From contig URGK01000002.1 in the NCBI GenBank assembly GCA_900547295.1, positions 22,732 to 86,731 of the forward strand: 64,000 bases of DNA. The letters run 5' to 3'. A model generated the notes under the pieces. It had not been told where the DNA came from, searched no databases, and saw only the letters and a list, made by a program, of their open reading frames with translations. Position 1 is the stretch's first letter. Each line of letters starts with the position of its first letter. Made by a program: the position numbers and the translations under genes. This DNA is from an uncultured Eubacteriales bacterium. GTDB lineage: Bacteria; Bacillota; Clostridia; Peptostreptococcales; Anaerovoracaceae. Below, one piece after another: positions 6,076 to 59,014 of the stretch.

Positions 6076-6114
6076 TCACAAATGAGTGAAAGGAGCCCAA
6101 AAGAGCTCCTTTCC
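6076..6114 (-). terminator. Rho-independent terminator after surface-protein paralog 1
   Basis: Minus RNA GAAAGGAGCUCUUUUGGGCUCCUUUC (9-bp stem) then ACUCAUUUGUG. Confidence 0.5.
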
Positions 6115-6126
6115 TGTTAAAGTTAT

Positions 6127-9018
6127 TTATTTACTCCAAGTTCTCAATCCGTATTTACACTGTTTAAGAACTGTCTGTCCTGCTAAAGTATCTCCGCTGT
6201 ATACCATAGCCTTAGCCTTGTAGTAGTACTTCGTGCCTTTCTTGCCGGCAGTGTTGATGTATGTGTTTGTATCCTTGGTCTTAACAGCTTTGTATCCTGC
6301 AGCTTTCTTTGCTGATCTGTAGAACTTGTATTTAACTGTATATCCTGCATCTGTCAGCGCAGTTATATCTCCCGATACTACAGCTTTGATGTTCTTCTTT
6401 GATGTCTTTGATGTTCTTACTTTAAGATTAACTTCCTTAATCATGATATCTAACTGTTCAGCCATAGCCTTATCAGCCTCATCCTTAGCCATTACTGCAT
6501 ATTCTGAGAAGTGGCCTGTTGTAAAGGTGTATGTACCGTCTGCGTTCTTCTGTCCGTTTACTAATGTGTAGATACCGTTGTCATTGATGTATACACATAC
6601 AACATCCTTGGCTGCAAGCTCCTTGGACAGGTTAATTGTAACCTTGACATTACCGCCATTGAAGTCCTTAACAGCTCCGTTTGATGTTATAAGTTTCAGG
6701 TTTACATGGCAGATGTTTTCATCAGACTTAATGGTTTCGATTATCAGTCTGACAAAACCTGTATTTCCTGCCTGCGCTGCAACTGCATCAAGCGCAGTCT
6801 TGTCTAAATCAACTTTACCGTTATCAGTTTTAATAACCAGATTGGCATCTGTTTTTTCAGCCAGTTCCTTAACTGTCTTTTCAGGTATGCCGACTTCTGA
6901 TGATGCTACATTGTTATTACCTGCTGCATCAACGATGATTTCTTCTGATTTATTTTCTAATGCTTTTTCAACAATCTTGTCTGCTGTCTTGGCATCTACA
7001 GTTGTTTCAGCCTTATTGTCCTTAACAGCCGGAGTAAGGTCAGCAGTTGTATTCTTATCTGCAGGGTTGTTGGTTACGTTGTCTGTAGGGGTTGATGGTG
7101 TGTATGGTACAGGCCTAACTGTCCAAGCGTCACCACTCTTATCAGCATAATATCCTGAAGCTACATATGCACTAGGATCTGATGAGAATGTACCGCCTGT
7201 GATAGTAGCAGTTCCCTTATATTTTTCGCTATTATCATAACGATCACAAAGCACCTTCTGATTATCTTTACTTATATATGTACCTCCTGTTACTGTCAGT
7301 TCTCCAACAGCACGATTTTCAGCATATTTTGCAGTAAATAAAACTGCTTCAGCACTGTCATTTGCTTCAAAGCTACCACCGGAAAGATTAGCCTTGTGCC
7401 AGTTCATAATAACAAACTGCGAAGTATTAGAGAAAGATCCGCCGCTAACCGTCAACTCACCTAATTCATCATTTTTTACAGTATTAATACCGCCAGAAAA
7501 GCTTCCCCCGTTTATTTTTAATTTGGATGCGCTTTGACTTGCACTATCACCGCCATTACGGATCATACTTGAGAAGTGTCCTTTATTTGTAACATTAACA
7601 CCATTTTTGATGGTCATATTACCACCCTTATCATTCAAAATAGTGTAGAAGCTATTCTTACCGGCACTGTCCTTATTATTCTCTTCATCCTCTAAACTTC
7701 GAGTATAAGTACCTCCATTAAGTATAGCTGTACCATAGTTAACTAAAGCTGCTTTGCCGTGAGTTACATTGTCTACAGTACCAGCCTTATTTTCACTGGT
7801 ATCCTCAATAGTAAGTGTACCTCTATTAACAATTGTATGGCTACCACTATTTGTTATCTTATTTCCGTTAAGGTCAATAGTTGCAGTACAATCTGCTAGT
7901 ATTGCAACATCCTTAGTAGCATCTTTACCAAGCTTAATTGTAACATTAGCACTTTCTCCAAGATAATCTACTGCACTTAAATCAGAATATGTACCACCTG
8001 TGATAAAATTTTTCTTATCTTCACTATATATAGCATTAGTTCCACCCTTTATAGCTGTAAAGTTTCCACCAGATACTGCGATTTTTACTTTAGCTATGTT
8101 TTCAACACTGTTTTTTTGTGGATTACTCTCGTATAGCGCACTGAAACCCTTTATATCTCCACTAATAATTTTTACGTCAATTGGTAAACCTGTAGTGTGC
8201 TGTGCAATCGCAATTCCCGCACCATCAGTAGTCGAGCCATTACCATTAGGAGTTACTGTTTTAGGTGCACTGGTGCCTGTAATCTCTGTATTTTCTGATA
8301 CAGTAAGTTCTCCTGCACGAATTTCTATTCCAGTAGCTCCTGTTATCTTTGCGCCTTCAATATTCCATTTCGCATATCCTGCAGCATAAATTCCATCTCC
8401 TACTGACTCAATAGTTGCAGTTGATCCTATTTTAATATTTGGAACGGCTCCTGTTGTGGCTACAATTTGCCCATTTATATAAATTCCAGATCCCTTGTCA
8501 CCAGATGTATCAGCAAGACCTTCAAGCTTACCGTTTACTGTGGCATTAATACCGTAATTTGAACCCTTATTCTGATCAATAAAAAGAGCACTCCAACCTC
8601 TAAGTGTGATATTTTCTCCAACTATAACATTGCTGTGATTTGTTTCAGTTTGCTGTGATCCGCCATTTAAAATAACTGGTCCAAAATAAGGCTCAGCTTC
8701 AGATACAGTTCCAGTGCCTTTAAACTCTAAAGTCCCATTTTTAACAGTAAAATGTTTTTTAGAAGAAAATGATATATTCTTACCATTCATATCTATAGTT
8801 ATATTTTTGCCATTTTCTATAACAATGACTTTCCCAACATTTACCAAATCCTCTTCTAATCTAATATTTATATTTTGACCAGTAGTATTACTTAAAGCAT
8901 TATTAAACTCTTCTATGCTTTTTACATGAACTACTGTTTCCTCCGCAGCAAACACCCCTATAGGCATCATTGCCACTATCATAGCCATACTTATGACTAT
9001 AGCCAATAACTTCTTCAT
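6127..9018 (-). CDS. Large secreted repeat protein, paralog 1 (963 aa). Signal peptide, Gly/Thr/Asn-rich beta-helix-like repeats, conserved ~330 aa C-terminal module.
   Basis: N-terminus MKKLLAIVISMAMIVAMMPIGVFA is identical to paralog 2. Central region is low-complexity G/N/T-rich with recurring xGGxFSxx/NGGT motifs. The C-terminal ~330 aa (PYTPSTPTDNVTNN...KQCKYGLRTWSK) is ~85% identical to paralog 2 and contains an Fn3-like YKFYRS...KYYYKAKA module also found in the M23 peptidases of this window. GGAGGG RBS. No LPXTG, SLH or choline-binding anchor seen. Confidence 0.8.
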   Translation of the reverse strand: MKKLLAIVISMAMIVAMMPIGVFAAEETVVHVKSIEEFNNALSNTTGQNINIRLEEDLVNVGKVIVIENGKNITIDMNGKNISFSSKKHFTVKNGTLEFKGTGTVSEAEPYFGPVILNGGSQQTETNHSNVIVGENITLRGWSALFIDQNKGSNYGINATVNGKLEGLADTSGDKGSGIYINGQIVATTGAVPNIKIGSTATIESVGDGIYAAGYAKWNIEGAKITGATGIEIRAGELTVSENTEITGTSAPKTVTPNGNGSTTDGAGIAIAQHTTGLPIDVKIISGDIKGFSALYESNPQKNSVENIAKVKIAVSGGNFTAIKGGTNAIYSEDKKNFITGGTYSDLSAVDYLGESANVTIKLGKDATKDVAILADCTATIDLNGNKITNSGSHTIVNRGTLTIEDTSENKAGTVDNVTHGKAALVNYGTAILNGGTYTRSLEDEENNKDSAGKNSFYTILNDKGGNMTIKNGVNVTNKGHFSSMIRNGGDSASQSASKLKINGGSFSGGINTVKNDELGELTVSGGSFSNTSQFVIMNWHKANLSGGSFEANDSAEAVLFTAKYAENRAVGELTVTGGTYISKDNQKVLCDRYDNSEKYKGTATITGGTFSSDPSAYVASGYYADKSGDAWTVRPVPYTPSTPTDNVTNNPADKNTTADLTPAVKDNKAETTVDAKTADKIVEKALENKSEEIIVDAAGNNNVASSEVGIPEKTVKELAEKTDANLVIKTDNGKVDLDKTALDAVAAQAGNTGFVRLIIETIKSDENICHVNLKLITSNGAVKDFNGGNVKVTINLSKELAAKDVVCVYINDNGIYTLVNGQKNADGTYTFTTGHFSEYAVMAKDEADKAMAEQLDIMIKEVNLKVRTSKTSKKNIKAVVSGDITALTDAGYTVKYKFYRSAKKAAGYKAVKTKDTNTYINTAGKKGTKYYYKAKAMVYSGDTLAGQTVLKQCKYGLRTWSK

Positions 9019-9034
9019 TCGTTTTCCCTCCTCG

Positions 9035-9057
9035 AATAAATAAATAAATAAATAAAT
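9035..9057. repeat. (AAAT)5 microsatellite in 5' UTR of paralog 1
   Basis: aataaataaataaataaataaat directly read; lies between the leader terminator hairpin and the RBS. Confidence 0.9.
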
Positions 9058-9087
9058 TTGTTGCCTGTTACCTTTATTAAGTAACTT

Positions 9088-9124
9088 TAAATTAAAAAGA
9101 CAAGCTTCTGCCTGCCTTGCTGTC
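9088..9124 (-). terminator. Terminator-like hairpin + U-tract forming the expression platform of riboswitch copy 1
   Basis: Minus RNA GACAGCAAGGCAGGCAGAAGCUUGUC followed by UUUUUAAUUU, between the aptamer and the paralog 1 RBS. Confidence 0.5.
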
Positions 9125-9139
9125 GTAATAAATATTAGT

Positions 9140-9222
9140 CTGTATAACTGGCAGCCATACTCATTACGAGCTGCAGGCCCTATAGCTTTGCGCCCCTGTC
9201 TTTCGACAGATTTGCCCTTTTC
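9140..9222 (-). ncRNA. c-di-GMP-I (GEMM) riboswitch aptamer, copy 1
   Basis: Minus RNA ...AAAAGGGCAAAUCUGUCGAAAGACAGGGGCGCAAAGCUAUAGGGCCUGCAGCUCGUAAUGAGUAUGGCUGCCAGUUAUACAG. Matches the GEMM-I signature GGGCAAA-P1 stem-GAAA tetraloop-stem-GG(A/G)CGCAAAGC-P2 (compare Vc2 GGGCAAACCAUUCGAAAGAGUGGGACGCAAAGCCUCCGGCC...). Confidence 0.65.
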
Positions 9223-9237
9223 AATTTTTACCGTTTA

Positions 9238-9267
9238 ATTATACCCCTCCCCACGACGCTCTGTCAA
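9238..9267 (-). promoter_or_regulatory. Sigma-A promoter for riboswitch/paralog 1 (TTGACA-18-TATAAT)
   Basis: Minus strand TTGACAgagcgtcgtggggaggggTATAAT ~15 nt upstream of the aptamer 5' end. Confidence 0.55.
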
Positions 9268-9289
9268 CATAAACACATTCAGCATGCCT

Positions 9290-9348
9290 TCAAAAACAGA
9301 CGATCCGCCGATAAAATTATCAGCGGATCATCTGTTTATTTATTTATC
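9290..9348 (-). terminator. Bidirectional hairpin terminator after paralog 2
   Basis: acagacgatccgccgataaaattatcagcggatcatctgt imperfect 18-bp inverted repeat flanked by A-run/T-run. Confidence 0.5.
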
Positions 9349-9409
9349 CAATCAATCTATAAAGATTAATTAAGAAGGGTCTGATTTAAATCTACCTTGT
9401 TTCAGTTAT

Positions 9410-12109
9410 TTACTTACTCCAGGTTCTAGCTCCATACTTGCACTGTTTAAGAACTGTCTGTCCTACAAGCTTATCTCCGTCATATACAAGAGCCTTTGCC
9501 TTGTAGTAGTACTTGGTACCTTTCTTACCTGCAGTGTTGATGTATGTCTTGCCGGCTTTTGTTGCCTTTGCTACATACTTTGATGCTTTCTTTTCTGATC
9601 TGTAGAACTTGTACTTAACTGTATATCCTGCATCTGTCAATGCCTTAACATCTCCTGATACTACTGCCTTGATGTTCTTCTTTGCTGTCTTTGATGTTCT
9701 TACCTTAAGATTAACTTCCTTGATTAAGGTATTTAACTGTTCAGCTATTTTCTTGTCAGCCTCAGCTTTTGCCATTACAGCATATTCTGAGAAATGACCT
9801 GTTGTGAATGTGTATGTACCGTCTGCATTGAGAACCCCCTCTACCAATGTGTAGCTACCGTTGTCATCAATGTATACGCATACTAATTCCTTGGCTGCAA
9901 GCTCCTTATCAAGGTTAATTGTAACCTTGACATTACCGCCCCTGAAGTCTGTAACAGCGCCCTTTGATGTTACAAGCTTCAGATCCACATGGCAGATGTT
10001 TTCATCAGTCTTAACTGTTTCAACTGCAAGTTTAACAGTTCCGTCTGTTCCAGCCTGCTCTGCTACTGCTGCAAGGGCAGTCTTGTCTAAATCAACTTTA
10101 CCGTTGTCAGTTTTAATAACCAGACTGGCATCTGTTTTTTCAGCCAGTTCCTTAACTGTCTTTTCAGGTATAGCTACTTCTGATGAAGCTACAGTATTAT
10201 TGCCTGCTGCATCAACTATTACCTCTGTTGATTTGTTTTCTACTGCCTTGTCAACGATCTTGTCTGCTGTCTTGGCATCTACTGTTGTTTCAGCCTTGTT
10301 GTCCTTAACAGCCGGAGCAAGGTCAGCAGTTGTATTCTTATCTGTTGTATTATTGGTTACGTTGTCTGTAGGTGTTGATGGTGTGTATGGTCTGCCTACT
10401 GTATACGGACCATTACCTGTTACTATATATCCATCTGCTACATATGCTGTAGGATCTGATGAGAATGTACCGCCAGTTACTGACAACAAACACTTAGGAT
10501 CTTCGGGTTCTGTATCATAAAGTAATGCAATATCATTCAAAAACATACCGCCACTGACATTAACAATTGCTCCACCATAAGAGGAGTTTTTTACCACAGC
10601 CAATGCATATCCATTTGTTGATGAACCATTAAAATTTGCAACCTGTGTTTTTTCTGGTGCTGTATTATTAAATGTTCCACCCTTAATATCGAGTGTTCCG
10701 CCTTTAATTTCAATAGTACTTCCTTTGCCTGTACTATAATTTCCATTATTAATTACATATTTAGAATTTTTAGCAGCAAGATATAATTGTGCTTCAAACT
10801 CCCCATTATTAATAGTTATATTACTATTTTCATATGAGCCATTAGTATATACGTATCCCTTATATGTTCCATTATTTAATGTGGTTTCAGTATTATATAT
10901 TGAAAAAACCGAAAATTCTCCATCCAATACACCATTTTCTATAATAAGTGTACCATTATTCTGAACAGCAACTTGTTTACCTTTTATTGTACCATTTCCT
11001 GTTATTTTAAGTTTTGAATTTTCTCCAACTCGAATAGTTCTCACACAGCCTGTTTTATATGATACTTCTTTAGTATTCAAGTCAAGTGTTATATTTTTAT
11101 TTACTACAATGGTTTCATCTGTACTTATATCTTTTATAAGCTTTACAGTAGCTCCATCACTTGCAGCATCAATTGCTCCGGCAAGAGTTTTAAAACACTG
11201 TTCATCTATTGAGGCTACTGCATCTGCTGGATCTGTATTCCTTACAACAGTACCATCTGTTTTTAAAACATATCCATCTGCAATGTACGCTCTCACATCA
11301 CCTGAGAATGTGCCACCTCTAATAGCATTTTTCTTGGTAGAAACCTCACCATTAAATTTTCCACCTAAGATTTCAATATTTGATCCTTTTGCAGAAACTG
11401 CAGTCGGTCCAGAGATTTCTCCGTTTTTAATAGTTATTGTACTCATAGAACTTCCACAGATTGCAGTTATATAAGTTTCATTATCTGCTGATACCGCAGT
11501 GATTTCGCCTCCATTCATTTCAAAAGCTGCATTTGAGTTTCTAATGTTTACAGCAAAATTACCTCTTAAAGCAGTTGCTATTACTTTACCACCATTCATA
11601 ATGGCTTTTCCATTACCACCAATATAAATTGTGCTTCCAGCCTTAGCCATACCTTCACCGGTAATAATAGTTCCAGCTTCAATTGTCAGGCTTCCATTTC
11701 CTTCAACTGAAACAACTCTGCCTGATGTTCCTGTGTAACCCGAGCAGATTTTGCCACTGCCAATGCTGTCTTTAACTATTACGTTTCCCTTTATAAGTAG
11801 CGCTTGCTGGTTTACAGATGTATTAGTACCGCTAAGTATATGTCCGTTAAGGTCGATTGTCAGTTTTTTATTTTCCTCAATTGTAGTTGTCTTACCCGTA
11901 ACTGTAACATTATTTATTAGCTTTATAGTACTATTCTCTACCGCAGCATCAATAGCCTCCTGTAACGTATCATAATGTGTAGTGCCTATTGCTGCCTGAT
12001 GACTACAATTCTCTGCTGTACAATTCTCTGCTGTATCAGCAAACACCCCCATTGGCATCATTGCCACTATCATAGCCATACTTATGACTATTGCCAATAA
12101 CTTCTTCAT
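9410..12109 (-). CDS. Large secreted repeat protein, paralog 2 (899 aa)
   Basis: Same signal peptide (MKKLLAIVISMAMIVAMMPMGVFA) and same C-terminal module (PYTPSTPTDNVTNN...KQCKYGARTWSK) as paralog 1, divergent central beta-helix-like repeat region. Cys-containing N-terminal AENCTAENCS segment. GGAGGGTG RBS. Confidence 0.8.
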   Translation of the reverse strand: MKKLLAIVISMAMIVAMMPMGVFADTAENCTAENCSHQAAIGTTHYDTLQEAIDAAVENSTIKLINNVTVTGKTTTIEENKKLTIDLNGHILSGTNTSVNQQALLIKGNVIVKDSIGSGKICSGYTGTSGRVVSVEGNGSLTIEAGTIITGEGMAKAGSTIYIGGNGKAIMNGGKVIATALRGNFAVNIRNSNAAFEMNGGEITAVSADNETYITAICGSSMSTITIKNGEISGPTAVSAKGSNIEILGGKFNGEVSTKKNAIRGGTFSGDVRAYIADGYVLKTDGTVVRNTDPADAVASIDEQCFKTLAGAIDAASDGATVKLIKDISTDETIVVNKNITLDLNTKEVSYKTGCVRTIRVGENSKLKITGNGTIKGKQVAVQNNGTLIIENGVLDGEFSVFSIYNTETTLNNGTYKGYVYTNGSYENSNITINNGEFEAQLYLAAKNSKYVINNGNYSTGKGSTIEIKGGTLDIKGGTFNNTAPEKTQVANFNGSSTNGYALAVVKNSSYGGAIVNVSGGMFLNDIALLYDTEPEDPKCLLSVTGGTFSSDPTAYVADGYIVTGNGPYTVGRPYTPSTPTDNVTNNTTDKNTTADLAPAVKDNKAETTVDAKTADKIVDKAVENKSTEVIVDAAGNNTVASSEVAIPEKTVKELAEKTDASLVIKTDNGKVDLDKTALAAVAEQAGTDGTVKLAVETVKTDENICHVDLKLVTSKGAVTDFRGGNVKVTINLDKELAAKELVCVYIDDNGSYTLVEGVLNADGTYTFTTGHFSEYAVMAKAEADKKIAEQLNTLIKEVNLKVRTSKTAKKNIKAVVSGDVKALTDAGYTVKYKFYRSEKKASKYVAKATKAGKTYINTAGKKGTKYYYKAKALVYDGDKLVGQTVLKQCKYGARTWSK
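12005..12034. repeat. Perfect 15-bp tandem duplication (acaattctctgctgt x2) inside paralog 2 N-terminus
   Basis: Read directly; in-frame, encodes AENCT-AENCS. Confidence 0.9.
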
Positions 12110-12159
12110 TTAATCACCCTCCTTAACTCGGATATTTAATTACTCAGGGCTGCCTCTGC

Positions 12160-12190
12160 CATAATAAAAGGACAAGCCTTAACCTGTCCT
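12160..12190 (-). terminator. Terminator-like hairpin of riboswitch copy 2 expression platform
   Basis: Minus RNA GGACAGGUUAAGGCUUGUCC followed by UUUUAUUAU. Confidence 0.5.
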
Positions 12191-12214
12191 ACTGTCATTA
12201 TATATTCCTCATCT

Positions 12215-12297
12215 CTATGTAACTGGCAGCCATGCTCTATTGAGCTTCAGGCTCTGTAGCTTTGCATCCCTGTCTTTCGACAGATTTGCCCTCTTTT
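12215..12297 (-). ncRNA. c-di-GMP-I (GEMM) riboswitch aptamer, copy 2
   Basis: Minus RNA GGGCAAAUCUGUCGAAAGACAGGGAUGCAAAGCUACAGAGCCUGAAGCUCAAUAGAGCAUGGCUGCCAGUUACAUAG. Same architecture as copy 1 with compensatory changes (GCUC-GUAAU-GAGU vs GCUC-AAUA-GAGC). Confidence 0.65.
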
Positions 12298-12310
12298 GTT
12301 TTACTCTTAA

Positions 12311-12340
12311 AGTATACCCTCCCCCCTGGTGCTTTGTCAA
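12311..12340 (-). promoter_or_regulatory. Sigma-A promoter for riboswitch/paralog 2 (TTGACA-18-TATACT)
   Basis: Minus strand TTGACAaagcaccaggggggagggTATACT. Confidence 0.55.
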
Positions 12341-12349
12341 TAAAAAAAG

Positions 12350-12397
12350 AACCCTGTCGGATATAATCGTCAGAGTTCTCTTTTTTACCTTGATTAT
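12350..12397 (-). terminator. Bidirectional terminator at the end of the rnf operon
   Basis: agaaccctgtcggatataatcgtcagagttct hairpin flanked by A7 and T6 runs, 35 nt after rnfB stop. Confidence 0.55.
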
Positions 12398-19431: not shown

Positions 19432-20406
19432 TTATACCTTGATTTTTTGAATCAATTCATACCTGTTTTTTACATTTAACTTTTTATATATATGTGTCAG
19501 GTGCTGTTTTACCGTACTCTCTGATATAAACATTTTTTCTGCTATGTCCGGATTACTTGCTCCACTATAAATAAATCCTAACAGCTCCAGTTCTCTTGCG
19601 GTCAGTTTATATTCCTTGGCAAGAATCTCCCACGCAGCCTCTTTTCTGTCACTAACGCCTAAAATCTCAGGAATATAATAATCTGTCCTGAGTTCATCTT
19701 TTTTTGCAACCATATATAAAGTCAGTATACACATCACTATAGCAAAAATATGCGCAGGATCAAAACTTGCAAAAAGTATATTATTCGGAACCTCATCCAA
19801 ACACGATATTATATCCCAATTAGTAATATAAATCATATATGTAACAAGACACCCGCTAAATATAAGCACCCATTTTCCCTGTTTCTCCCCTTTCATTTTT
19901 AAGGCGCCATAAAACACAAATATTATGCTTATTATAATTACTGTCACATCAAAGATGCAATTTATATATAATAGTATGTTTGATATTTCTTTACTACTCA
20001 TTCCAAATTTATATGGACTGAATTTGGATATCAGATTCAATCCATCTACAGAAATTCCATAAATAATTGTATATATTGCAAAGCCTTTTATCTTTATTAT
20101 ATAAGGATTTCCAGATACTATTACTATGGTGGCTATCCATTCAACAATCACAACAAAATATGCCACATCAGAAAGTGTCGTCAGCGTATAAAACAACCCC
20201 CTGGTTATTTGGAGTTCTGTAAAAAATGTTACAAACATTTCAAATACGGTATATGCCAAAAATGATATCAGCAGCATTGAAACACTTTTATATAAACTCC
20301 CGGTTCTTTTAAATGAAAATCTTACATATAAGGTTGCAGCAATCGTACATATTATTATTGTACTGACATAAAACAGCATATTAACAAACATCGGAAATAA
20401 AATCAT
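19432..20406 (-). CDS. Membrane-embedded LuxR-type regulator (~8 TM helices + C-terminal LuxR HTH)
   Basis: C-terminus ELELLGFIYSGASNPDIAEKMFISESTVKQHLTHIYKKLNVKNRYELI is a LuxR/GerE HTH; N-terminal ~230 aa hydrophobic multi-span. AT-rich. Confidence 0.75.
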   Translation of the reverse strand: MILFPMFVNMLFYVSTIIICTIAATLYVRFSFKRTGSLYKSVSMLLISFLAYTVFEMFVTFFTELQITRGLFYTLTTLSDVAYFVVIVEWIATIVIVSGNPYIIKIKGFAIYTIIYGISVDGLNLISKFSPYKFGMSSKEISNILLYINCIFDVTVIIISIIFVFYGALKMKGEKQGKWVLIFSGCLVTYMIYITNWDIISCLDEVPNNILFASFDPAHIFAIVMCILTLYMVAKKDELRTDYYIPEILGVSDRKEAAWEILAKEYKLTARELELLGFIYSGASNPDIAEKMFISESTVKQHLTHIYKKLNVKNRYELIQKIKV

Positions 20407-20434: not shown

Positions 20435-21292
20435 TTAAAAGAACTTCTGAGGGTTGTATGTTCTGCCGTTTATCCATACCTCAAAATGCAGGTGATTTGT
20501 AGAGCCTGCGTTGCCTGTGCTTCCCACAGTTCCGATTTTATCACCGGCCTTAACCTTCTGTCCTGCTCTGACGCTTCTGGAATTGAGATGACCGTACCAC
20601 GTCACAAGTCCCTTTGCGTGCTTTATAACTATGCCCTCGCCAAGACCTCCGTAGTTGCTTCTCGACCTTGTAACTGTACCTGAAGCTGCTGCGTATACCG
20701 GCGTACCCTTTGGCGCAGCATAGTCTGCTCCTATATGAAACGCACCTCCTCTGTTGCCGTAGCCCGACACGTGAGTTGATTTTTTAACGGGCTTTACAAG
20801 TGAAATTCCCCTGTAGGATTTGAGAGTCCAGCCCACAGCTTTTTTTGATTTTCTACTTTTGACGGTTTTTCCCTCTGTTTTAGCATATGCCGCCACTTTG
20901 TAGCAATACCTGCTTTTTATGCTGAGCCCGGAGTCTGTATATGAAGTTTTTTTACTTCCCTTTAGAGTTTTGATGCATATGTATTTCTTTTTGTTCTTGC
21001 TCCAGCGGTACACCTTGTAGCCGTCTGCCGCTTTGATACGTTTCCAGCTTACCTTTATTTTATCGTAATCTCTGCCTGCGGCCTTTACTCCTGACGGCGC
21101 AGCCGGTCTAACGGGCTTTGCCGGTGCCGCATTTACATTGTCCTCAGCTGCCGCCGGCTCCTCTGTTACTGTATCAGGGGCTGACGGCTCCTGCGCAGCA
21201 TCCCCCGCGCCCTCTGCTTCTGATGAAAAAACAGCGACAGGCGCAAAGCACAGTGCGAACACAAAAAAAATACTTACAAGTTTTTTTATCAT
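20435..21292 (-). CDS. Secreted M23 family metallopeptidase with Fn3-like domain
   Basis: Signal peptide; Fn3-like KVSWKRIKAADGYKVYRW...; LytM motifs HIGADY...GHLNS...HLHFEV. Confidence 0.85.
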   Translation of the reverse strand: MIKKLVSIFFVFALCFAPVAVFSSEAEGAGDAAQEPSAPDTVTEEPAAAEDNVNAAPAKPVRPAAPSGVKAAGRDYDKIKVSWKRIKAADGYKVYRWSKNKKKYICIKTLKGSKKTSYTDSGLSIKSRYCYKVAAYAKTEGKTVKSRKSKKAVGWTLKSYRGISLVKPVKKSTHVSGYGNRGGAFHIGADYAAPKGTPVYAAASGTVTRSRSNYGGLGEGIVIKHAKGLVTWYGHLNSRSVRAGQKVKAGDKIGTVGSTGNAGSTNHLHFEVWINGRTYNPQKFF

Positions 21293-21341: not shown

Positions 21342-22208
21342 TCAGTAGTTCTGCGGCCTGTGAAATCTGCCCATAAACATCTCGGTCTTAACTACATTTA
21401 TAAATGCTTTAGGGTCCTGCTCTATAACGCAACGGGTCACTATTTTGGCCTCTGTGCTTGACACCACGCAGTAAAGCATTGTTCTGTTGCTCTGCGAATA
21501 CATACCCGTTGCCGGAATTTCAGTAACGCTGTGGTGGGTTTTTTCGAGTATCACCTGATAAAGCTCATTCGGGTAATCCGTAACTATAAACAGCGTAACC
21601 TTGTTGTGAGCCTGATAGAGAAGCCTTATCATCTCTGTCGAGGTGAACTGGAATATGATTGAATAAAGCGCCTTGTCCCAGCCAAACAGTATGCCCGCTA
21701 TGGCAAGCACCGTAGCGTTTCCTATCAGAATATAGTTCCAGACATCCTTGTTTTTCTTTTCGAGAAAATACACCGCGATAAAATCCGTACCGCCGGTTGA
21801 AGTACCGCCGATAAGACAGATGCTTATTGCAACGCCGTTTACAAGGCCTCCGAACACACTTATGAGGAGGATGTCCTGTGTAATAGATATTGCAGGCACA
21901 ATATCCGTAAACAGACTCGTCACAACTATAATCAGCGCTGTATTTAGAGTAAATCTCTTGCCTATTACCTTGAAACTTATAATCGCCGGAACTGCATTGA
22001 GCGCAAGGCTTATAGGCGAAAACGGCAGCGCTATGCCAAAGAACCTGTCAAATATGGTCTGTATCAGAAGTGTGACTCCGTTAAAGCCTCCCGGATAAAG
22101 CCCTCCCGTATGCACAAAGCTCTTGATGTTCACCGCCATAATAAATGAGCCTAGCAGCCCGAAAGCCAGTATTTTAAGCTCGGATTTCAGATTAAATCTG
22201 GAACTCAT
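21342..22208 (-). CDS. YitT family membrane protein (DUF161 + DUF2179)
   Basis: 288 aa, 5-6 TM N-terminal domain plus C-terminal DUF2179-like soluble domain; typical YitT architecture. Confidence 0.8.
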   Translation of the reverse strand: MSSRFNLKSELKILAFGLLGSFIMAVNIKSFVHTGGLYPGGFNGVTLLIQTIFDRFFGIALPFSPISLALNAVPAIISFKVIGKRFTLNTALIIVVTSLFTDIVPAISITQDILLISVFGGLVNGVAISICLIGGTSTGGTDFIAVYFLEKKNKDVWNYILIGNATVLAIAGILFGWDKALYSIIFQFTSTEMIRLLYQAHNKVTLFIVTDYPNELYQVILEKTHHSVTEIPATGMYSQSNRTMLYCVVSSTEAKIVTRCVIEQDPKAFINVVKTEMFMGRFHRPQNY

Positions 22209-22293: not shown

Positions 22294-23133
22294 TTAATAG
22301 AACTTTCTTGGATTGTACGCCTTGCCGTTTATTCTCACTTCAAAATGCAGATGAGCGCACATTGCGTTGCCTGTGGCTCCCACTCTGCCGATTTTATCTC
22401 CTGCCTTAACTTTATCTCCTTTTTTGACGCTGCGGCTGCTCATATGACCGTAGGTTGTGGTAATTCCCTTGCCGTGACTGATTTTAACCATAGTACCCAT
22501 GCTGTTGATAGAGCCGTGGGACTCTATTACGGTACCGTCCGCCGCCGCATATATGCTTGTGCCGTGCGAGGCTCTGTAATCATTACCGTGGTGCATTCTG
22601 CCCCATCTCCAGCCGTAGGAAGAAACTGTGCTCAGTTTAGTAAGCGGCTTAACCAGGGCTATCCCCATATATGTCTTATAGGTTTTCTTTTTTACTGTCT
22701 TTGAAAACTTCCCCTCAACCTTATTATTTCCCTGCAGCTTGTAGGCGCATACCTTGTATCTGTAGGTTTTGTTGGATTTGAGTTTTTTGTCCGTATAGTA
22801 AGTCCTGCTGCCTTTGATGGTTTTTTTGAGTATGTATTTGCCGGAGGAGCTGCTGTATCTGTACACCCTGTAGCCGTCGCAGTTCTTTACTTTTTTCCAG
22901 CTCAGCTTAATATTATTTGAAATCGTCTTAACCTGAGCTTTAACTCCCTCAGGCGCTGCCGGTGCCTTAATCTCCTCTGCCGAAGGTGTGGTATCACTTC
23001 CTGCTTCATATGTGATTTCAGCAGGGATTTCAGACCCTGCATCTGCTGATGTTTCCTGCGCAAAACAAGCTCCGCCGCTGCACAGACTTATAATCATTGC
23101 CATAACTAATATATAAATAATCTTCGTTTTCAT
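22294..23133 (-). CDS. Secreted M23 family metallopeptidase with Fn3-like domain (paralog)
   Basis: Signal peptide; KLSWKKVKNCDGYRVYRY Fn3-like; HHGNDY...GHMSS...HLHFEV. Confidence 0.85.
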   Translation of the reverse strand: MKTKIIYILVMAMIISLCSGGACFAQETSADAGSEIPAEITYEAGSDTTPSAEEIKAPAAPEGVKAQVKTISNNIKLSWKKVKNCDGYRVYRYSSSSGKYILKKTIKGSRTYYTDKKLKSNKTYRYKVCAYKLQGNNKVEGKFSKTVKKKTYKTYMGIALVKPLTKLSTVSSYGWRWGRMHHGNDYRASHGTSIYAAADGTVIESHGSINSMGTMVKISHGKGITTTYGHMSSRSVKKGDKVKAGDKIGRVGATGNAMCAHLHFEVRINGKAYNPRKFY

Positions 23134-28576: not shown

Positions 28577-30637
28577 CTACTTCCTTATAATCGTCAGCGT
28601 ATAGGTCCTTGAAAGTCCGCTGGTCGCTTTCACTTTAATATAGTGGGTATTGGTTCCTGTTTTAAGTGATACGGTATCAGCGCCGCCTGTTACCTGCGCG
28701 CCGCTGTCATTTGCTTTGGCGGTAACCGCAACCTTATCTGTATCGTGAGGAACCGTAACTGTATATTTTTGAGTATACCTGCTGAAGTTCTTGTCAAGGC
28801 TTACCGATGCCTCTCCTGCGGTTACTTTAATGCGGTCTAAAAGATTGTTGTTGTTGCCTGTTGTGGTCGGTTTTTTGCAGGCAGATGACGGCATACTCTT
28901 GAATACAGGTATTTTAAATACTATGGCGCCGTCTGCAAGAGAGCTGTAGCCCTGCTTCATAATCATAGCCTCGCTTTCGGCTCCCTGTATATTTGTCATA
29001 TACTGATGCGTGCCTATTGCGTTTTTGCTGTCAGCGCATACGTTAAATTTCTTGAGATACAGGGTATCCTGTCCCGAATTCACATAGCCTTCGGCATAAA
29101 ACATCGCTCCGCCCTTGAGGGACTTGTATCTGGTGTTCCACGGCCTGCCGTAGGTGGTAGCGCCTGCGCCTGCACCCGATGCCCACCATAAACCTCTCTG
29201 GACTGCAGACATAGTAGAGGTTTTGTAAGCTCCGCAGTTAAAGAAATTGTATATTCCCTTGTAGCCCTTGTACGTGCCCGATACCGAGCCGTTTGAAAGG
29301 CTGCCCTGCTCCTGTATTATCATAGCCGCAAGCACGTTTGGATTTACTCCCGTATTCTTGCCTGCGTAATATATGGCGCTTGCATATGTAGAGTAAGGCT
29401 CGTCAGGGAAGTCCACATCAAGAAATGTGCCTTTAACTATTTTTTTAACTGTCGATATGCTCTGAGCCTCGCTGTCAAAAGCATGGCTTACAAACATATA
29501 TATGCCGTTTTCGTTAAGAAAATTACGCGGATCGAGATAATATTTGATTATTCCGGTATACGCGCTTACCCAGCCGCCGCTGTCAAATACGACATATTTG
29601 TTATTTTTAAAGTCGTAGGCTCCGCTTTTCATTGATTTCCATGAATCATAGGCGCCTGAATATATAAGGTTTCTGCCTACCATCGTTTCGGCTGCAACTG
29701 CAGCAGACCATGCTGTGCCTGTATGCTCAGCCCTGAAAATCCAGTCCGGGTGTTTTTCGTGAAGCGCCCGAAGATAAGGCTTGTAGCTTTCGGGAAAGCC
29801 CTCGTTTTCGAGCATTGTTTCAAAGTCAGATGCGGTGTTTCCTCCGCTGCCTCCGCTGTTATCCCTGTATTCGCTCACTTTAACATAGGCAGAGGATACA
29901 TATCCGTATTCGCTGCCGAATTTTATTTTGTACCAAAGCTTCCCGCTGCTGTCTTTTTTGCTTCCCAGTATTCTGGCTGTCGCCCCCTTGTCGATGCTTC
30001 CAAGCACTCTTCCGGAAGTTCCGGCGGAGACTCTGACATTAAGCGGTCCTTCTTTGACTGTTATCATCTGTTCCTTTGTTTCCTCTGCCGGAGCCGTCGT
30101 GCTGCCTTTTTTGACATATGAAGCCCTTATATATGACAGCTTGCCGTTATATGTAACTGCATACCACAGTTTTTTGCTGCTGTCATATTTGTAGCCTTTA
30201 AGCGTAACCGACGCTCCTTTTTTGAGAGTTCCTCTCAAAGTGCCGGAGGTTCCCGCAGAAGCTCTGACGCTTAAAGGTCCGTCTGTAACCGTAGCTTTCT
30301 GCGCCGGAGTGTAAATTGTATATGCTGTTTTGGTTACTGTCTTGACATAGGCCGAGCTTATATATGAAGCCTTGCCGTCATAGGTTATGTAATACCATTT
30401 AGTGCTTCCGTTTGTTTTATATCCTTTTAGCGTAACCTGCTGCCCTTTGGCAAGCTCTCCTCTGACTGATGAGGTCGCCGAGGCCGCGCTTCTGACATTA
30501 AGCGGCCCTGCGGTTACCTGCCCCGTCTTATAGGATGAATATTTAACCAGTTCTGCGCCTGATGAGGCTGTTACCGATAATACAAATATCAGAGTAACCG
30601 TTATCATAACTGCAATAATGCGCACTAGTCTGTTCAT
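28577..30637 (-). CDS. Secreted cell-wall hydrolase: 3x SH3b domains + glucosaminidase-like domain + cadherin-like beta-sandwich domain
   Basis: Signal peptide; three ~70 aa repeats (GPLNVR.SAGTSG...KG..VTLKGYK...KLWY.VTYNGK.SYI..SYVK) = bacterial SH3; central region with AAMIIQEQGS and YAEGYVNSG resembling GH73/LYZ2 glucosaminidases; C-terminal domain fits cadherin-like beta sandwich. Confidence 0.6.
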   Translation of the reverse strand: MNRLVRIIAVMITVTLIFVLSVTASSGAELVKYSSYKTGQVTAGPLNVRSAASATSSVRGELAKGQQVTLKGYKTNGSTKWYYITYDGKASYISSAYVKTVTKTAYTIYTPAQKATVTDGPLSVRASAGTSGTLRGTLKKGASVTLKGYKYDSSKKLWYAVTYNGKLSYIRASYVKKGSTTAPAEETKEQMITVKEGPLNVRVSAGTSGRVLGSIDKGATARILGSKKDSSGKLWYKIKFGSEYGYVSSAYVKVSEYRDNSGGSGGNTASDFETMLENEGFPESYKPYLRALHEKHPDWIFRAEHTGTAWSAAVAAETMVGRNLIYSGAYDSWKSMKSGAYDFKNNKYVVFDSGGWVSAYTGIIKYYLDPRNFLNENGIYMFVSHAFDSEAQSISTVKKIVKGTFLDVDFPDEPYSTYASAIYYAGKNTGVNPNVLAAMIIQEQGSLSNGSVSGTYKGYKGIYNFFNCGAYKTSTMSAVQRGLWWASGAGAGATTYGRPWNTRYKSLKGGAMFYAEGYVNSGQDTLYLKKFNVCADSKNAIGTHQYMTNIQGAESEAMIMKQGYSSLADGAIVFKIPVFKSMPSSACKKPTTTGNNNNLLDRIKVTAGEASVSLDKNFSRYTQKYTVTVPHDTDKVAVTAKANDSGAQVTGGADTVSLKTGTNTHYIKVKATSGLSRTYTLTIIRK

Positions 30638-46678: not shown

Positions 46679-48103
46679 TTATCTGTCCGATATGTGACCT
46701 GCTTTTAACTTTGAGAAATAGCTCCTGGTTTCTGTCGCTACAACGCCGCTTAATGCAACCAGTGCTATCAGGTTAGGTATAGCCATAAATCCGTTGAATA
46801 TATCAGCTATTGTCCATACTGCCTCAAATGTAAGGAAAGGTCCGATGAAAACGGCCGCTATGTAGAGCCACTTGTAAGTCATAAGCACTCCCGTTTTTTT
46901 GCCGCCTATGAGATATTCAAGGCATCTTTCGGAATAGTAATCCCATCCGAGAATTGTTGTAAATGCAAAGAATGCAAGGCACAGCATCAGGAAGAAGGCT
47001 CCTGTCTGTGTATTCCAAGGAAGTCCCTCACCGAAAGCTGTCGCTGTTACTGCAGCGCCTTCAAGACCTTCAATTCCGTGTGAGTTTGTAACAAGGATTG
47101 TAAGCGCAGTCATCATACAGATGATTATTGTGTCAAGGAAAGTACCTGTCATTGTAACAAGACCCTGTCTTACAGGCTCTTTAGTCCGAGCTGCAGCTGC
47201 TGCGATAGGCGCTGAACCAAGACCTGCCTCATTTGAGAATACTCCTCTTGCAACACCCTTCTGCATTGCGATAAACATTGCACCCAGCGCTCCGCCTGCT
47301 GCGGCTCTTGCTCCGAAAGCTCCCTCAACGATTTCCTTAACTGCTGCAGGGATTTCCTGTATATTAACTATCAGTATTGCAACGCATACTACTACATAAA
47401 GCACCATCATAAACGGTACTACCACTGATGATACGCTGGCAATTCTCTTAATTCCGCCGATTACTACAAGCGCTACTGCCGCCGCTACAACTACTGCCGT
47501 AACTAGTGTTGCCCATGTATAGCCAATGCCGTTCATTGTAAATGCAATGTGAGCGCCGTTAGGATCTGCAAAGTTGTTTACTGCTGTTGAGATACCGTTT
47601 ACCTGCGTAATTGTACCTATGCCCAGAAGTCCTGCTCCCACGCCGAAAAATGCAAATATTTTAGCAAGCCATTTCCAGTTCCTGCCCATACCTCTTTCTA
47701 TGTAGTAGAACGGTCCGCCCAGAGCATGTCCCTCTTTGTCAATAACTCTGTATTTGACTGCAAGAAGTCCCTCTGCATATTTTGTAGCCATACCTATGCA
47801 GGCTGCTATAAACATCCAGAATACCGCTCCCGGTCCTCCCGCAAGCATTGCTCCCGCAACACCTACGATATTACCTGTACCTACTGTAGCCGACAGCGCC
47901 GTGCACAGCGCTCCGAAGCTTGTAACCTCGCCCACACCGTCTTTTTCGTTTTTGACCATATAGCGCAGCGCCAGTCCCAGCTTACGGAACTGCAGCACGC
48001 CAAGCCTTACGGTAAGCAGAAGACCTGTACCCATAATGAGTATAAGCATAGGCACGCCCCAAGCCAGATTATCGAGTTTTGTTAAAAAGTCCATAAATGT
48101 CAT
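46679..48103 (-). CDS. Alanine/glycine:cation symporter (AGCS family)
   Basis: 474 aa, ~11 TM, AGCS-family conserved motifs (GTGNIVGVAGA...GGPGAVFWM). Confidence 0.9.
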   Translation of the reverse strand: MTFMDFLTKLDNLAWGVPMLILIMGTGLLLTVRLGVLQFRKLGLALRYMVKNEKDGVGEVTSFGALCTALSATVGTGNIVGVAGAMLAGGPGAVFWMFIAACIGMATKYAEGLLAVKYRVIDKEGHALGGPFYYIERGMGRNWKWLAKIFAFFGVGAGLLGIGTITQVNGISTAVNNFADPNGAHIAFTMNGIGYTWATLVTAVVVAAAVALVVIGGIKRIASVSSVVVPFMMVLYVVVCVAILIVNIQEIPAAVKEIVEGAFGARAAAGGALGAMFIAMQKGVARGVFSNEAGLGSAPIAAAAARTKEPVRQGLVTMTGTFLDTIIICMMTALTILVTNSHGIEGLEGAAVTATAFGEGLPWNTQTGAFFLMLCLAFFAFTTILGWDYYSERCLEYLIGGKKTGVLMTYKWLYIAAVFIGPFLTFEAVWTIADIFNGFMAIPNLIALVALSGVVATETRSYFSKLKAGHISDR

Positions 48104-48140: not shown

Positions 48141-48285
48141 AAAAAAGCCGATTAACTCGACTTCCAGAGAGATGCATAAGCTGACCTATGCTCTGTCCTT
48201 TGTGCCTGAGATATCACTTACAGGTTGCTTAGTCCTGTATGCTTAAACCTTCGGCGCCCTTAAAGGGTCTCTCCAGAGAATCATA
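48141..48285 (-). ncRNA. Glycine riboswitch (single aptamer + terminator expression platform)
   Basis: Minus RNA AUUCUCUGGAGAGACCCUUUAAGGGCGCCGAAGGUUUAAGC...ACAGGacuaagcaaCCUGU...AUCUCAGGCACAAAGGACAGAG is nearly identical in its conserved cores to V. cholerae aptamer (CUCUGGAGAGAACCGUUUAAUCGGUCGCCGAAGGAGCAAGC...CUCAGGCAAAAGGACAGAG). Followed by AAGUCGA-guuaa-UCGGCUU + U7 terminator, then RBS GAGGGAG and the symporter ATG. Confidence 0.8.
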
Positions 48286-48341
48286 GTTTTTTCATACCAT
48301 ATAAAAACTGTAATATACGGTTCATATAAACTAATGGAACT

Positions 48342-57457: not shown

Positions 57458-59014
57458 CTATTCGTAGTCGCGTGTCCATTCACCGTCGGCCTGCTCTGCG
57501 CCGTTCATAACATTGTTTATCTTTGTATTCGCTTTGGTTATGCAGCTTGTAGACGGTATTACCACCGATGCGGGAGCTCCGCCCATTGTGTAGCAAGGCT
57601 GACTGCCTGTACTGCCGGTTATTGAATAGTTTGCTATATTCCAGCCGGACATATCATTTATCTGCATCTTTACAAGCGACTGCATTTCAGATGTGGTCAT
57701 ATTTGTCTGCATTTCGTCTTTGACCGCATCAAGCAGCTGTGTATATTTTGTAAGCAGTGTTTTGCTTGAAAGCACTTTTTTGAGCATTGCCTTTAATACT
57801 TTCTGCTGGTTTTTATTTCTCTGAAAATCACCGTCCGTAAACGAATATCTTTCTCTTGAAAATGCCAGAGCCTCTTCACCGCTCAGATGGTTCTTGCCCT
57901 CAACAAAGCTGTATCCCTCGTTCTGTCTGCCATGGGTTATAAATGCCATATCGGATTTGACATCAATGCCTCCTATGGCATCAACTATTTCAATTACAGT
58001 CGAGAAGTTGACTCTGATATAGTAATTTATATCAATGCTCAGCATATCCTCTATTGTGGTTACGGTTTCGTCAATGCCGTATACGCCCGAATGAGTAAGC
58101 TTGTCATAAGCTGCTCTGCTGTGAAGCATTACATAGGAGTCCCTCGGTATTGATGTCAGCAGTATGGTCTTTGTTTCCGGATTGACCGTCATAACCATAT
58201 TGACATCGCTTTTTGCAACCTGTTCTATGGTTCCGAAGTTGTCGTTGCCGCTGATGCACACATTAAACGGTGTGGTCGTTATCTTATCAACACTCTTGGC
58301 CACATTATCAACCGCCGTTGCTATAGTTATAGTATATATTATTTTTGTCGACTCTTCAAAGCCTTTAATGTTCTCGCAGGACATATCGTAATATGTGCTG
58401 CTCATAAATATGGCGTTGCAGTCGCCGTTCATAAGGGTTTCGGATATCTCTATAGAGTTCTTGCCCTCTTCAAAGTTTATCTGCACATGATCTGCAAGTT
58501 TCTGCCTTGCCTCAAGGTAAGGTGTCTCCGATGATTTGAAAACATAGACATCATCTCCCATAATGAGATCAAGACCCATTGCTTTGGCTGACGCATCCTC
58601 CACATCTTCTGCCGGAACTATAACGTAATAGTCCTCTGTGGACTGTCCGATGGTGCTTATCTTTGAAAACAGATCCTGCGTGCTGTATATATAGTATGAA
58701 CCTATACCGTAGACAATAATTGCGATAATTGCAATTACTGTTCCGACCACGCGCCGCTTTGACCTCTTTTTCCTGATACGCAGAAACATCACAACAAAGA
58801 ATGAACCTATCAGTATAACCGCAAGAGCAGGTATCAGATATTTCATAGGCAGTACATTAAGCCATATCAGCATAGCCGAAAAGCATATCATCAGAATCAT
58901 ATATATTACGATGAGTATGATGTGAAAAGGCTTTCTGCCGCCCTTCTTTGGTGCGCTGTTATCCTCTGAAGTTCTTCTTCGTTTTTTTCTGGTTTTTCTG
59001 TTTACTTCACGCAA
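57458..59014 (-). CDS. LytR-CpsA-Psr (LCP) family protein
   Basis: Basic N-terminus, 3 TM, LCP catalytic domain (SIPRDSYV...AYDKLTHSGVYG...RERYSFTDGDFQRNKNQQ). Confidence 0.85.
   Translation of the reverse strand: MREVNRKTRKKRRRTSEDNSAPKKGGRKPFHIILIVIYMILMICFSAMLIWLNVLPMKYLIPALAVILIGSFFVVMFLRIRKKRSKRRVVGTVIAIIAIIVYGIGSYYIYSTQDLFSKISTIGQSTEDYYVIVPAEDVEDASAKAMGLDLIMGDDVYVFKSSETPYLEARQKLADHVQINFEEGKNSIEISETLMNGDCNAIFMSSTYYDMSCENIKGFEESTKIIYTITIATAVDNVAKSVDKITTTPFNVCISGNDNFGTIEQVAKSDVNMVMTVNPETKTILLTSIPRDSYVMLHSRAAYDKLTHSGVYGIDETVTTIEDMLSIDINYYIRVNFSTVIEIVDAIGGIDVKSDMAFITHGRQNEGYSFVEGKNHLSGEEALAFSRERYSFTDGDFQRNKNQQKVLKAMLKKVLSSKTLLTKYTQLLDAVKDEMQTNMTTSEMQSLVKMQINDMSGWNIANYSITGSTGSQPCYTMGGAPASVVIPSTSCITKANTKINNVMNGAEQADGEWTRDYE

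Follow-up and report, generated by a model that had tools for sequence, protein, structure and literature searches.

Two c-di-GMP-I riboswitch-led cassettes for a variable beta-helix protein family in an uncultured Anaerovoracaceae bacterium, with a predicted OFF switch ahead of one gene

Two adjacent minus-strand genes, here termed A and B, were analyzed in a 64,000-nucleotide stretch of contig URGK01000002.1 (positions 22,732 to 86,731; the whole stretch is called the window) from an uncultured Eubacteriales bacterium of the Anaerovoracaceae, a spore-former with an Rnf complex. Each gene lies behind its own class I cyclic di-GMP (c-di-GMP-I) riboswitch aptamer. In the explanation that we favor, and to which as a whole we give somewhat better than even chances, A and B would be two independently transcribed cassettes of one large Sec-exported protein family, each made up of promoter, c-di-GMP-I aptamer, intrinsic terminator, ribosome-binding site and gene. 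c-di-GMP would switch gene A off, the beta-helical centers of the proteins would be displayed at the cell surface, and the conserved ends of the cassettes would serve as recombination arms. The two units are composed as follows, in window coordinates and in the direction of transcription (E, expectation value; z, z-score).

12342-12385, minus strand: intrinsic terminator of the upstream rnf operon, just ahead of promoter B (hairpin of -19 kcal/mol, z -5.0, then a U-run)
12340..12311, minus strand: promoter B, TTGACA-18-TATACT (11/12 consensus matches; conserved in the related loci L080, L086 and L087)
12117-12122, minus strand: ribosome-binding site of gene B, GGAGGG, read from the sequence
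9410-12109, minus strand: gene B, 899 residues, from the open reading frame call
12038-12109, minus strand: signal peptide of gene B
10391-12037, minus strand: two-lobed beta-helix-like region of gene B
9413-10390, minus strand: C-terminal module of gene B (module profiles match at E 1e-36 to 1e-44)
9289-9337, minus strand: intrinsic terminator after gene B, between units B and A (20-bp stem and U-run, -31.6 kcal/mol, z -8.0)
9267..9238, minus strand: promoter A, TTGACA-18-TATAAT (12/12 consensus matches)
9026-9031, minus strand: ribosome-binding site of gene A, GGAGGG, read from the sequence
6127-9018, minus strand: gene A, 963 residues, from the open reading frame call
8947-9018, minus strand: signal peptide of gene A
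7108-8946, minus strand: predicted right-handed beta-helix region of gene A
6130-7107, minus strand: C-terminal module of gene A (linker, alpha/beta domain, Ig-like sandwich, helix and Fn3 domain, as modeled)
6088-6113, minus strand: intrinsic terminator after gene A (-19.3 kcal/mol, z -6.0)

A first-pass annotation of this DNA had assigned each gene a promoter and riboswitch leader of its own. In agreement with this, the two near-consensus, sigma-70-like promoters are the top two among 29 promoter-like sites scored in the region, and each is followed by an RF01051 aptamer (64.3 and 62.0 bits for A and B) and a leader terminator. Because strong terminators bracket each gene, A and B are built as separate transcription units, the independence that had likewise been proposed. 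The identity of rnfB upstream of gene B was taken from synteny and from Pfam matches in L080.

The two proteins are most alike at their ends. Their signal peptides are identical over 19 residues, as first noticed, and end in 'GVFA' ahead of A or D, with no Cys. The C-terminal modules run from PYTPSTPTDNVTNN to the protein end and align without gaps over 326 residues; the shared module of about 330 residues therefore stands, with a measured identity of 82.8% (270/326) in place of the approximately 85% first given. By local BLAST at the DNA level, the modules are 82.6% identical over 1,091 bp and the leaders plus 5' ends are 72.9% identical over 332 bp. The G/N/T-rich centers do differ, as had been claimed, at 28-32% identity, though they are clearly homologous (E 2e-12). 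Searches of proteins A and B against Pfam and NCBIfam returned noise only (UfSP_MPN_N at E 0.12; AmaP at E 0.02-0.08). Just past the signal peptide of gene B (12004-12035), a 15-nucleotide unit is repeated 2.1 times and encodes 'TAENC TAENC'; the related L088 allele has one copy.

To describe the central region, residues 25-640 of gene A, and of gene A only, were modeled with AlphaFold2 from a 29-sequence alignment. The model (predicted local distance difference test score, pLDDT, 91.7; predicted TM-score 0.89) contains about 60 short strands arranged as a right-handed beta-helix, and nearly all of the 50 listed Foldseek matches in the PDB are right-handed beta-helix proteins. Pertactin is the top match; the others include PL6 alginate lyases, Hap, Ag43, tailspikes and the Lactobacillus reuteri SRRP, as well as pectate lyase, RbmB and glycosidases. 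These similarities are weak (TM of about 0.27, best E 3e-4) and hold at the level of the fold only. The beta-helix anticipated by the first-pass annotation is thus confirmed in the model as a fold class, one without a close relative, and the center of B probably shares it. Both centers are two-lobed; a 'GGTFSxDxxAYxAxGY'-type motif ends each lobe in B, and a looser version ends the first lobe in A. A profile of the beta-helix family found no match among PDB sequences.

In the favored explanation, this variable two-lobed beta-helix would be the working part of the protein, offering a binding or glycan-directed surface in an adhesin-like role. The beta-helices could instead belong to secreted lyases or hydrolases that degrade the glycans of matrix, mucin or capsule, namely dispersal or foraging enzymes made at low c-di-GMP whose variable fronts track glycan diversity as in phage tailspikes. 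The PL6 alginate lyases, pectate lyase, RbmB, tailspikes and glycosidases among the structural matches fit such enzymes, and an OFF switch would suit a dispersal function, the ZmpI protease of Clostridioides difficile being repressed in the same manner (PMC6366702). However, the matches are weak and headed by an adhesin, and neither Pfam/NCBIfam nor PDB sequence searches gave a match to PL1, PL6, GH28 or any other lyase or hydrolase family. Furthermore, no catalytic-looking motif is common to A and B, 'PNGNGSTTDGAGIAIAQHTT' being missing from B. An enzymatic role is therefore regarded as unlikely, while still a serious competitor of a binding role.

The C-terminal module of gene A was modeled at a pLDDT of 91.8. 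A short linker leads into an alpha/beta domain (module residues ~10-115), and then come two beta-sandwiches, one at 119-208 and the terminal one at 230-322, with a helix (209-225) between them. In the model the terminal domain has the seven-strand beta-sandwich of fibronectin type III (Fn3) structures and is assigned to this fold. The Pfam fn3 model does not detect this tail in A or B, and a PDB search with a single sequence gave only a weak match to 3mpc. The tails are strongly basic, in contrast to the beta-helix and first module domain, which have isoelectric points (pI) of 4.5-5.3.

6130-6483, minus strand: basic Fn3 tail of gene A (pI 10.06, charge +17.8)
9413-9766, minus strand: basic Fn3 tail of gene B (pI 10.1, charge +19.8; fold assigned by homology to the modeled tail of A)

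No known anchoring signal accompanies the module, which agrees with the absence of LPXTG, SLH, choline-binding and lipobox anchors reported from the first reading. Motif, hydrophobicity and Pfam/NCBIfam checks of A and B found no LPXTG-like motif and no hydrophobic stretch beyond the signal peptide, no lipobox and no Cys at the cleavage site, and no Pfam match at E<=1 to SLH, CWB2, choline-binding, LysM or SH3b domains. Relatives of the A beta-helix with other C-termini carry SLH domains (P0117-P0120) or CBM_X2 with a hydrophobic segment and 'RKRKNH' behind it (P0077, P0101), and a Glug-containing protein carries the module. The SLH region of P0117 matched none of 144 module-bearing representatives; SLH and the module were never found together. 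Because the module is replaced by an SLH or membrane tail in these relatives, and because of the charge pattern, we infer by analogy that the module serves to retain the protein on the cell surface. In the proposed mechanism, the very basic terminal Fn3 domain would hold the otherwise acidic protein non-covalently on the anionic Gram-positive wall.

A different function for the module would be oligomerization or the formation of a stalk, or a role as an export or processing tag that needs a free C-terminus, in which case the proteins would be released. The strictly terminal position of the module in all 144 representatives inspected is more like that of sorting domains than that of movable wall-binding repeats and is consistent with this possibility, as is the lack of a detectable known wall-binding fold. 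Nevertheless, an acidic body with a tail of +18 to +20 points to retention, as does the presence of an SLH or membrane tail in its place in homologs, and no dedicated secretion genes adjoin the cassettes. We consider release fairly improbable relative to surface retention.

The module defines a large family. In a scan of 1.84 billion cluster representatives (clusters at 50% identity), 1,466 proteins matched it at E<=1e-3 and 345 at E<=1e-30. It lies at the extreme C-terminus in 144/144 of the representatives fetched and inspected, in proteins of 192-3,039 residues, and a signal-peptide-like N-terminus is present in 109 of 143 module-bearing representatives. The N-terminal regions of the module-bearing proteins examined differ; Pfam searches of seven long representatives gave one Flg_new_2 match and nothing more. 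Among close homologs the module is 80-93% identical, against 26% to 100% for the N-terminal regions. Judged from these sequences, the C-terminal module ending in an Fn3-like unit is, as had been suggested, uncharacterized; it has no Pfam model and is widely shared. The nearest named carriers are members of the Anaerovoracaceae, with Emergencia timonensis. Species-representative genomes hold several family copies each, with at least 5 loci in E. timonensis SN18; other Anaerovoracaceae also carry the family, and several metagenome-assembled genomes of uncultured gut Clostridia have 7-9 loci each.

The link to the riboswitch extends beyond the window. With a covariance model built from seven aptamers, aptamers were found directly upstream of family genes, or of neighbors ending in the same basic Fn3 tail, in the distant genomes L004, L006, L021, L036 and L048-L050, and likewise in the close relatives L001, L002, L080-L083, L086 and L087. 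A metagenome scan with the leader returned four loci only, two of them ahead of an unrelated surface protein. In L089 and L091, from a fermentation metagenome, the same 23-nucleotide aptamer P2 sequence precedes a different signal-peptide protein of 1,041 residues, which has no similarity to the A/B beta-helix or module.

Both aptamers in the window match RF01051 over its full length (model positions 1-87) and well above its gathering score of 35 bits.

12215-12300, minus strand: aptamer B, RF01051 c-di-GMP-I (62.0 bits, E 1e-9)
9140-9226, minus strand: aptamer A, RF01051 c-di-GMP-I (64.3 bits, E 2.7e-10)

Each has a P2 hairpin with a GNRA tetraloop ('GGGCAAAUCUGUCGAAAGACAGG') and a P3 stem with its receptor, and contains '..GCAAAGC..'. 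Both stems are intact and the junction residues G20, A47 and A48 are present. Positions of the Vc2 aptamer were mapped by hand from the Rfam alignment and the published numbering, which places G20 in J1-2, the interhelical pair C44-G83, A47-A49 in J2-3 and C92 in J3-1 (PMC3764141). In Vc2, C92 forms a Watson-Crick pair with one guanine of c-di-GMP; the C92U substitution weakens binding, and a response is still seen at high c-di-GMP. In aptamer A the tail after P3 (9141-9146) reads 'AUACAG' against the consensus 'gCCgaa', which places a U at the position aligned with C92. This U is also found in L001, L002, L082 and L083 and thus in all type A leaders collected (the leader types are described below), whereas C occupies position 92 in aptamer B and in all of the other 13 collected aptamers above E 1e-20. 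Aptamer B deviates elsewhere: 'GAU' (12261-12263, within 'GGGAUGCAAAG') gives 'GAUGC' in place of the consensus 'GACGC', so that the U at C44 permits only a U-G wobble with G83. Aptamer A keeps both C44 and G83, and the orthologous leader in L087 has C at position 44. As a G20/U92 variant found in nature, aptamer A may bind with low affinity or altered specificity, and the two deviations together could reflect different thresholds, altered specificity or partial decay.

The direction of switching was approached through the expression platforms.

12161-12190, minus strand: leader terminator B (9-bp stem, hairpin 12190..12169, and U-run)
9118..9097, minus strand: leader terminator A (9-bp hairpin, then a U-run)
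9090-9139, minus strand: expression platform A (spacer complementary to apical P3, then terminator and U-run)

The leader terminators start 25-30 nucleotides past the aptamers and do not overlap them; ligand binding therefore cannot sequester the terminators directly. Such a layout is as expected for an OFF switch built on two competitions, aptamer against antiterminator and antiterminator against terminator. Three leader types were distinguished among related genomes: type A (window leader A, L001, L002, L082 and L083), type B (window leader B and L087) and type C (L080 and L086). The terminator stem covaries across them, the second pair being A-U in one and G-C in another, a compensatory change. 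The probability of the terminator was computed by equilibrium partition-function folding, either free or with P2 and P3 enforced. In type A leaders it rises from 0.00-0.01 in the free state to 0.72-0.93 with the aptamer enforced (0.01 to 0.93 for window leader A), and in type C leaders from 0.00-0.01 to 0.61-0.80. In type B leaders it is 0.87-0.92 free and 0.95 enforced (0.92 and 0.95 for window leader B). The antiterminator of leader A comprises 13 bp between the P3 apex and the spacer and 6 bp with the terminator 5' arm, at -29.2 kcal/mol (z -5.1 against shuffles). The corresponding P3/spacer duplex in types B and C is not significant against shuffles (z +0.25 to +1.2).

These folding results lead us to predict, with moderate confidence, that gene A is repressed by c-di-GMP; the first-pass annotation had proposed c-di-GMP control but named no direction. 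In the ligand-free leader A, pairing of the P3 stem and the junction with the spacer and the terminator 5' arm would form the antiterminator and permit read-through; c-di-GMP would lock the aptamer, the terminator would form and gene A would be off. Protein A would thus be made at low c-di-GMP. The same direction is known from C. difficile, where 7/7 functional class I riboswitches are terminator-based OFF switches (PMC6366702).

An ON switch, through which high c-di-GMP would induce A and B as adhesins of the sessile state in the manner of Bc2-cap in Bacillus thuringiensis or the class II-controlled CD2831 and CD3246 in C. difficile, appears improbable. It draws on the usual association of c-di-GMP with adhesion and on the existence of class I ON switches such as Bc2 and Vc1 (PMC6366702), and the leader B terminator, formed by default in the equilibrium model, is the expected resting state of an ON switch. 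On the other hand, the terminators lie past the aptamers with no overlap that would allow direct sequestration by ligand binding, enforcement of the aptamer raises rather than lowers the terminator probability in leader types A and C, and a ligand-stabilized anti-terminator was looked for in leader B and none was found. More doubtful still is that one or both aptamers have decayed and that the leaders are constitutive attenuators, with expression set by the promoter and leaky termination: U92, U44, the aptamer-independent termination predicted for leader B and the 5/16 non-functional c-di-GMP riboswitches of C. difficile (PMC6366702) would fit, but both aptamers exceed the gathering score by about 27 bits and preserve both stems, the GAAA tetraloop, G20 and A47, leaders of the same types persist ahead of intact genes in several genomes, and Vc2 C92U still responds at high c-di-GMP.

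A number of results weigh against the favored explanation as a whole. Among the 47 genome loci whose 5' end is intact and whose upstream sequence is long enough, only 6 have an aptamer; control by c-di-GMP therefore recurs, but in only part of the family. The U92 of aptamer A would fall on a ligand contact, at the position where C92U weakens Vc2 binding, and the U44 of aptamer B on a tertiary contact. Leader B and its L087 orthologue are predicted to form the terminator with or without the aptamer, so that no switching is predicted for B. A canonical P1 helix was sought beside G20 and C92 in all leader types and no convincing one was found; the argument for direction therefore rests on the competition between terminator and antiterminator, and ON switches of the same class exist, as noted. 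For the proteins, the beta-helix fold of the gene B center is read from its homology to A, and the lyases and tailspikes among the modeled matches leave an enzymatic role some probability. A wall-binding fold was sought in the module and none was found, so that anchoring is argued from charge, position and analogy.

Two observations concern the leaders themselves. A (TATT)5.8 microsatellite lies on the minus strand between the gene A leader terminator and ribosome-binding site (9035-9057); L002, L082 and L083 have two units fewer, which indicates a strain-variable copy number. In Emergencia-type leaders (L048 4534-4760, L050 4575-4760 and L049 177-360), two successive terminator-like hairpins follow the aptamer and recall Bc1 of Bacillus thuringiensis, for which a long two-terminator platform has been described (PMC11218506).

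The first-pass annotation had read the pair as a tandemly duplicated cassette. A simple recent duplication was rejected: the A and B modules differ by a synonymous divergence (dS) of 0.506, their leaders are 73% identical and the two cassettes have different genomic contexts. With a nonsynonymous divergence (dN) of 0.118 and a dN/dS of 0.23, the modules instead record an old split under purifying selection. Gene B occupies a slot next to rnfB, in the order M23 peptidase, rnfCDGEAB, riboswitch plus family gene, that is conserved in L080, L081, L086 and L087, where the beta-helix regions of the slot genes are only 30-65% identical to that of B. The A cassette is found elsewhere. In L001 it lies beside an rRNA operon and is ~100% identical in DNA from the promoter (~9318) to ~7000, where identity falls abruptly to 72-93% inside the module.

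Further breakpoints are seen in other relatives. The slot gene of L080 (L080 6001-8844) is a chimera of the 5' part of B, a segment of A and the module: it is 96.6% identical to window 13300-11125 (rnfB through the first ~980 nucleotides of B) and then 95.8% identical to window 7782-7160, a segment of the second beta-helix lobe of A, before the module. In L085 the first 1,083 nucleotides of A are retained at 95.8% identity ahead of divergence. In L087 the leader and signal peptide of B are retained at 96.5%, and the beta-helix has only ~30% protein identity and no DNA match. L088 (449-1417) encodes a 322-residue member in which the B signal peptide and ~40 N-terminal residues are joined straight to the module, the beta-helix being deleted; this short gene is still behind the same riboswitch. 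IS605/OrfB, IS110 and PDDEXK_2 genes flank some of the cassettes. These sharp mosaic breakpoints mark the leader/signal-peptide block and the module as arms for recombination on either side of a variable core. Judged by the sequence comparisons, the A/B pair is a juxtaposition of two shuffling cassettes and not a fresh duplication. Recombination through both arms would swap or fuse beta-helix segments between paralogs and strains.

Compared with known systems, the predicted regulation adds one more case to a known kind, that of terminator-based class I c-di-GMP riboswitches, and the module is undescribed. The closest parallels are the class I OFF switches Cd1/flgB and zmpI of C. difficile, which share the aptamer class, a related Clostridia order, the layout of aptamer, spacer and intrinsic terminator, envelope or secreted products, and the ligand-induced termination predicted for leader A. 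Unlike these, A and B belong to an unrelated protein family and carry two neighboring aptamers with different mutations (U92 in A, U44 in B), with no switching predicted for B. As in CD2831 and CD3246 (class II, ON), Bc2-cap (class I, ON) and Vc1-gbpA, expression of a secreted or surface protein would be under the direct control of a second-messenger riboswitch; those c-di-GMP-induced products are LPXTG/sortase substrates or chitin-binding, whereas A and B have no sortase signal and are predicted to be repressed.

At the protein level, the arrangement of many paralogs with one conserved module and variable functional domains is that of the C. difficile Cwp (CWB2) proteins, SLH-domain proteins and Listeria GW proteins, and a homologous beta-helix occurs with SLH in place of the module. 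The module differs from these in its predicted fold (alpha/beta, Ig-like, helix, basic Fn3) and in being strictly C-terminal, and its wall binding is putative. Pertactin, Hap, Ag43 and the L. reuteri SRRP likewise expose a variable right-handed parallel beta-helix, but A and B lack an autotransporter barrel or serine-rich repeat context and are two-lobed with cap motifs. In contrast to the clostridial Fn3 domains of PDB 3mpc (Clostridium thermocellum) and CtXyl5A (5g56), the A/B tail is strongly basic, invariably comes last and closes with a conserved '[YW]S.KA.R..K'-type strand.

That c-di-GMP riboswitches control surface proteins is known; here such an element would gate a large family that is invisible to Pfam and has several members in each genome among common uncultured gut Clostridia. 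Should the basic Fn3 domain at the C-terminus indeed be a wall-retention device, it would be a new type of anchoring beside SLH, CWB2, LysM, GW and LPXTG and would make the surface proteome of module-bearing gut Clostridia predictable. As the mosaic breakpoints suggest, strains may diversify their exposed beta-helices through recombination, a matter of relevance to colonization, immune recognition and susceptibility to phage. The U92 and U44 variants, natural and next to each other, provide a ready test of how the affinity or specificity of c-di-GMP-I aptamers is tuned. A more ambitious joint reading, speculative and with little likelihood of holding in full, would combine an undescribed Gram-positive retention or sorting module with a cassette-exchange system, for which the module and the leader/signal-peptide block supply the homology arms and which diversifies beta-helix surface proteins, and with aptamers of different threshold or ligand (such as 3',3'-cyclic GMP-AMP, cGAMP, for G20/U92), such that paralogs are expressed at different second-messenger levels.

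Basic Fn3 domains occur a second time in the window. Two secreted M23 peptidases (20435-21292 and 22294-23133), flanking a 288-residue membrane protein (21342-22208), each begin with a very basic N-terminal Fn3 domain (pI 10.2 and charge +22 in the first), and this M23-rnf arrangement is conserved in L080, L086 and L087. The tail unit of A and B had been thought to recur in both peptidases. Both do carry a Pfam fn3 domain and a basic charge, but the A/B tail profile matches only the first, and weakly (E 0.002); identity of the units was rejected, fold class and charge being what they share. Basic Fn3 domains may serve this organism more generally in targeting proteins to the wall. Adjoining the first peptidase, 19432-20406 (minus strand) encodes a 324-residue protein with a multi-pass membrane N-terminus and a C-terminal LuxR/GerE helix-turn-helix.

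Elsewhere in the window, 28577-30637 (minus strand) encodes a likely surface protein of 686 residues with three SH3_3 domains and a C-terminal cadherin-like beta-sandwich, and 57458-59014 encodes a LytR_cpsA_psr (LCP) family protein. Finally, a single glycine riboswitch aptamer (RF00504, 50.3 bits; 48183-48286, minus strand) lies upstream of a sodium:alanine symporter family gene (46679-48103, minus strand).

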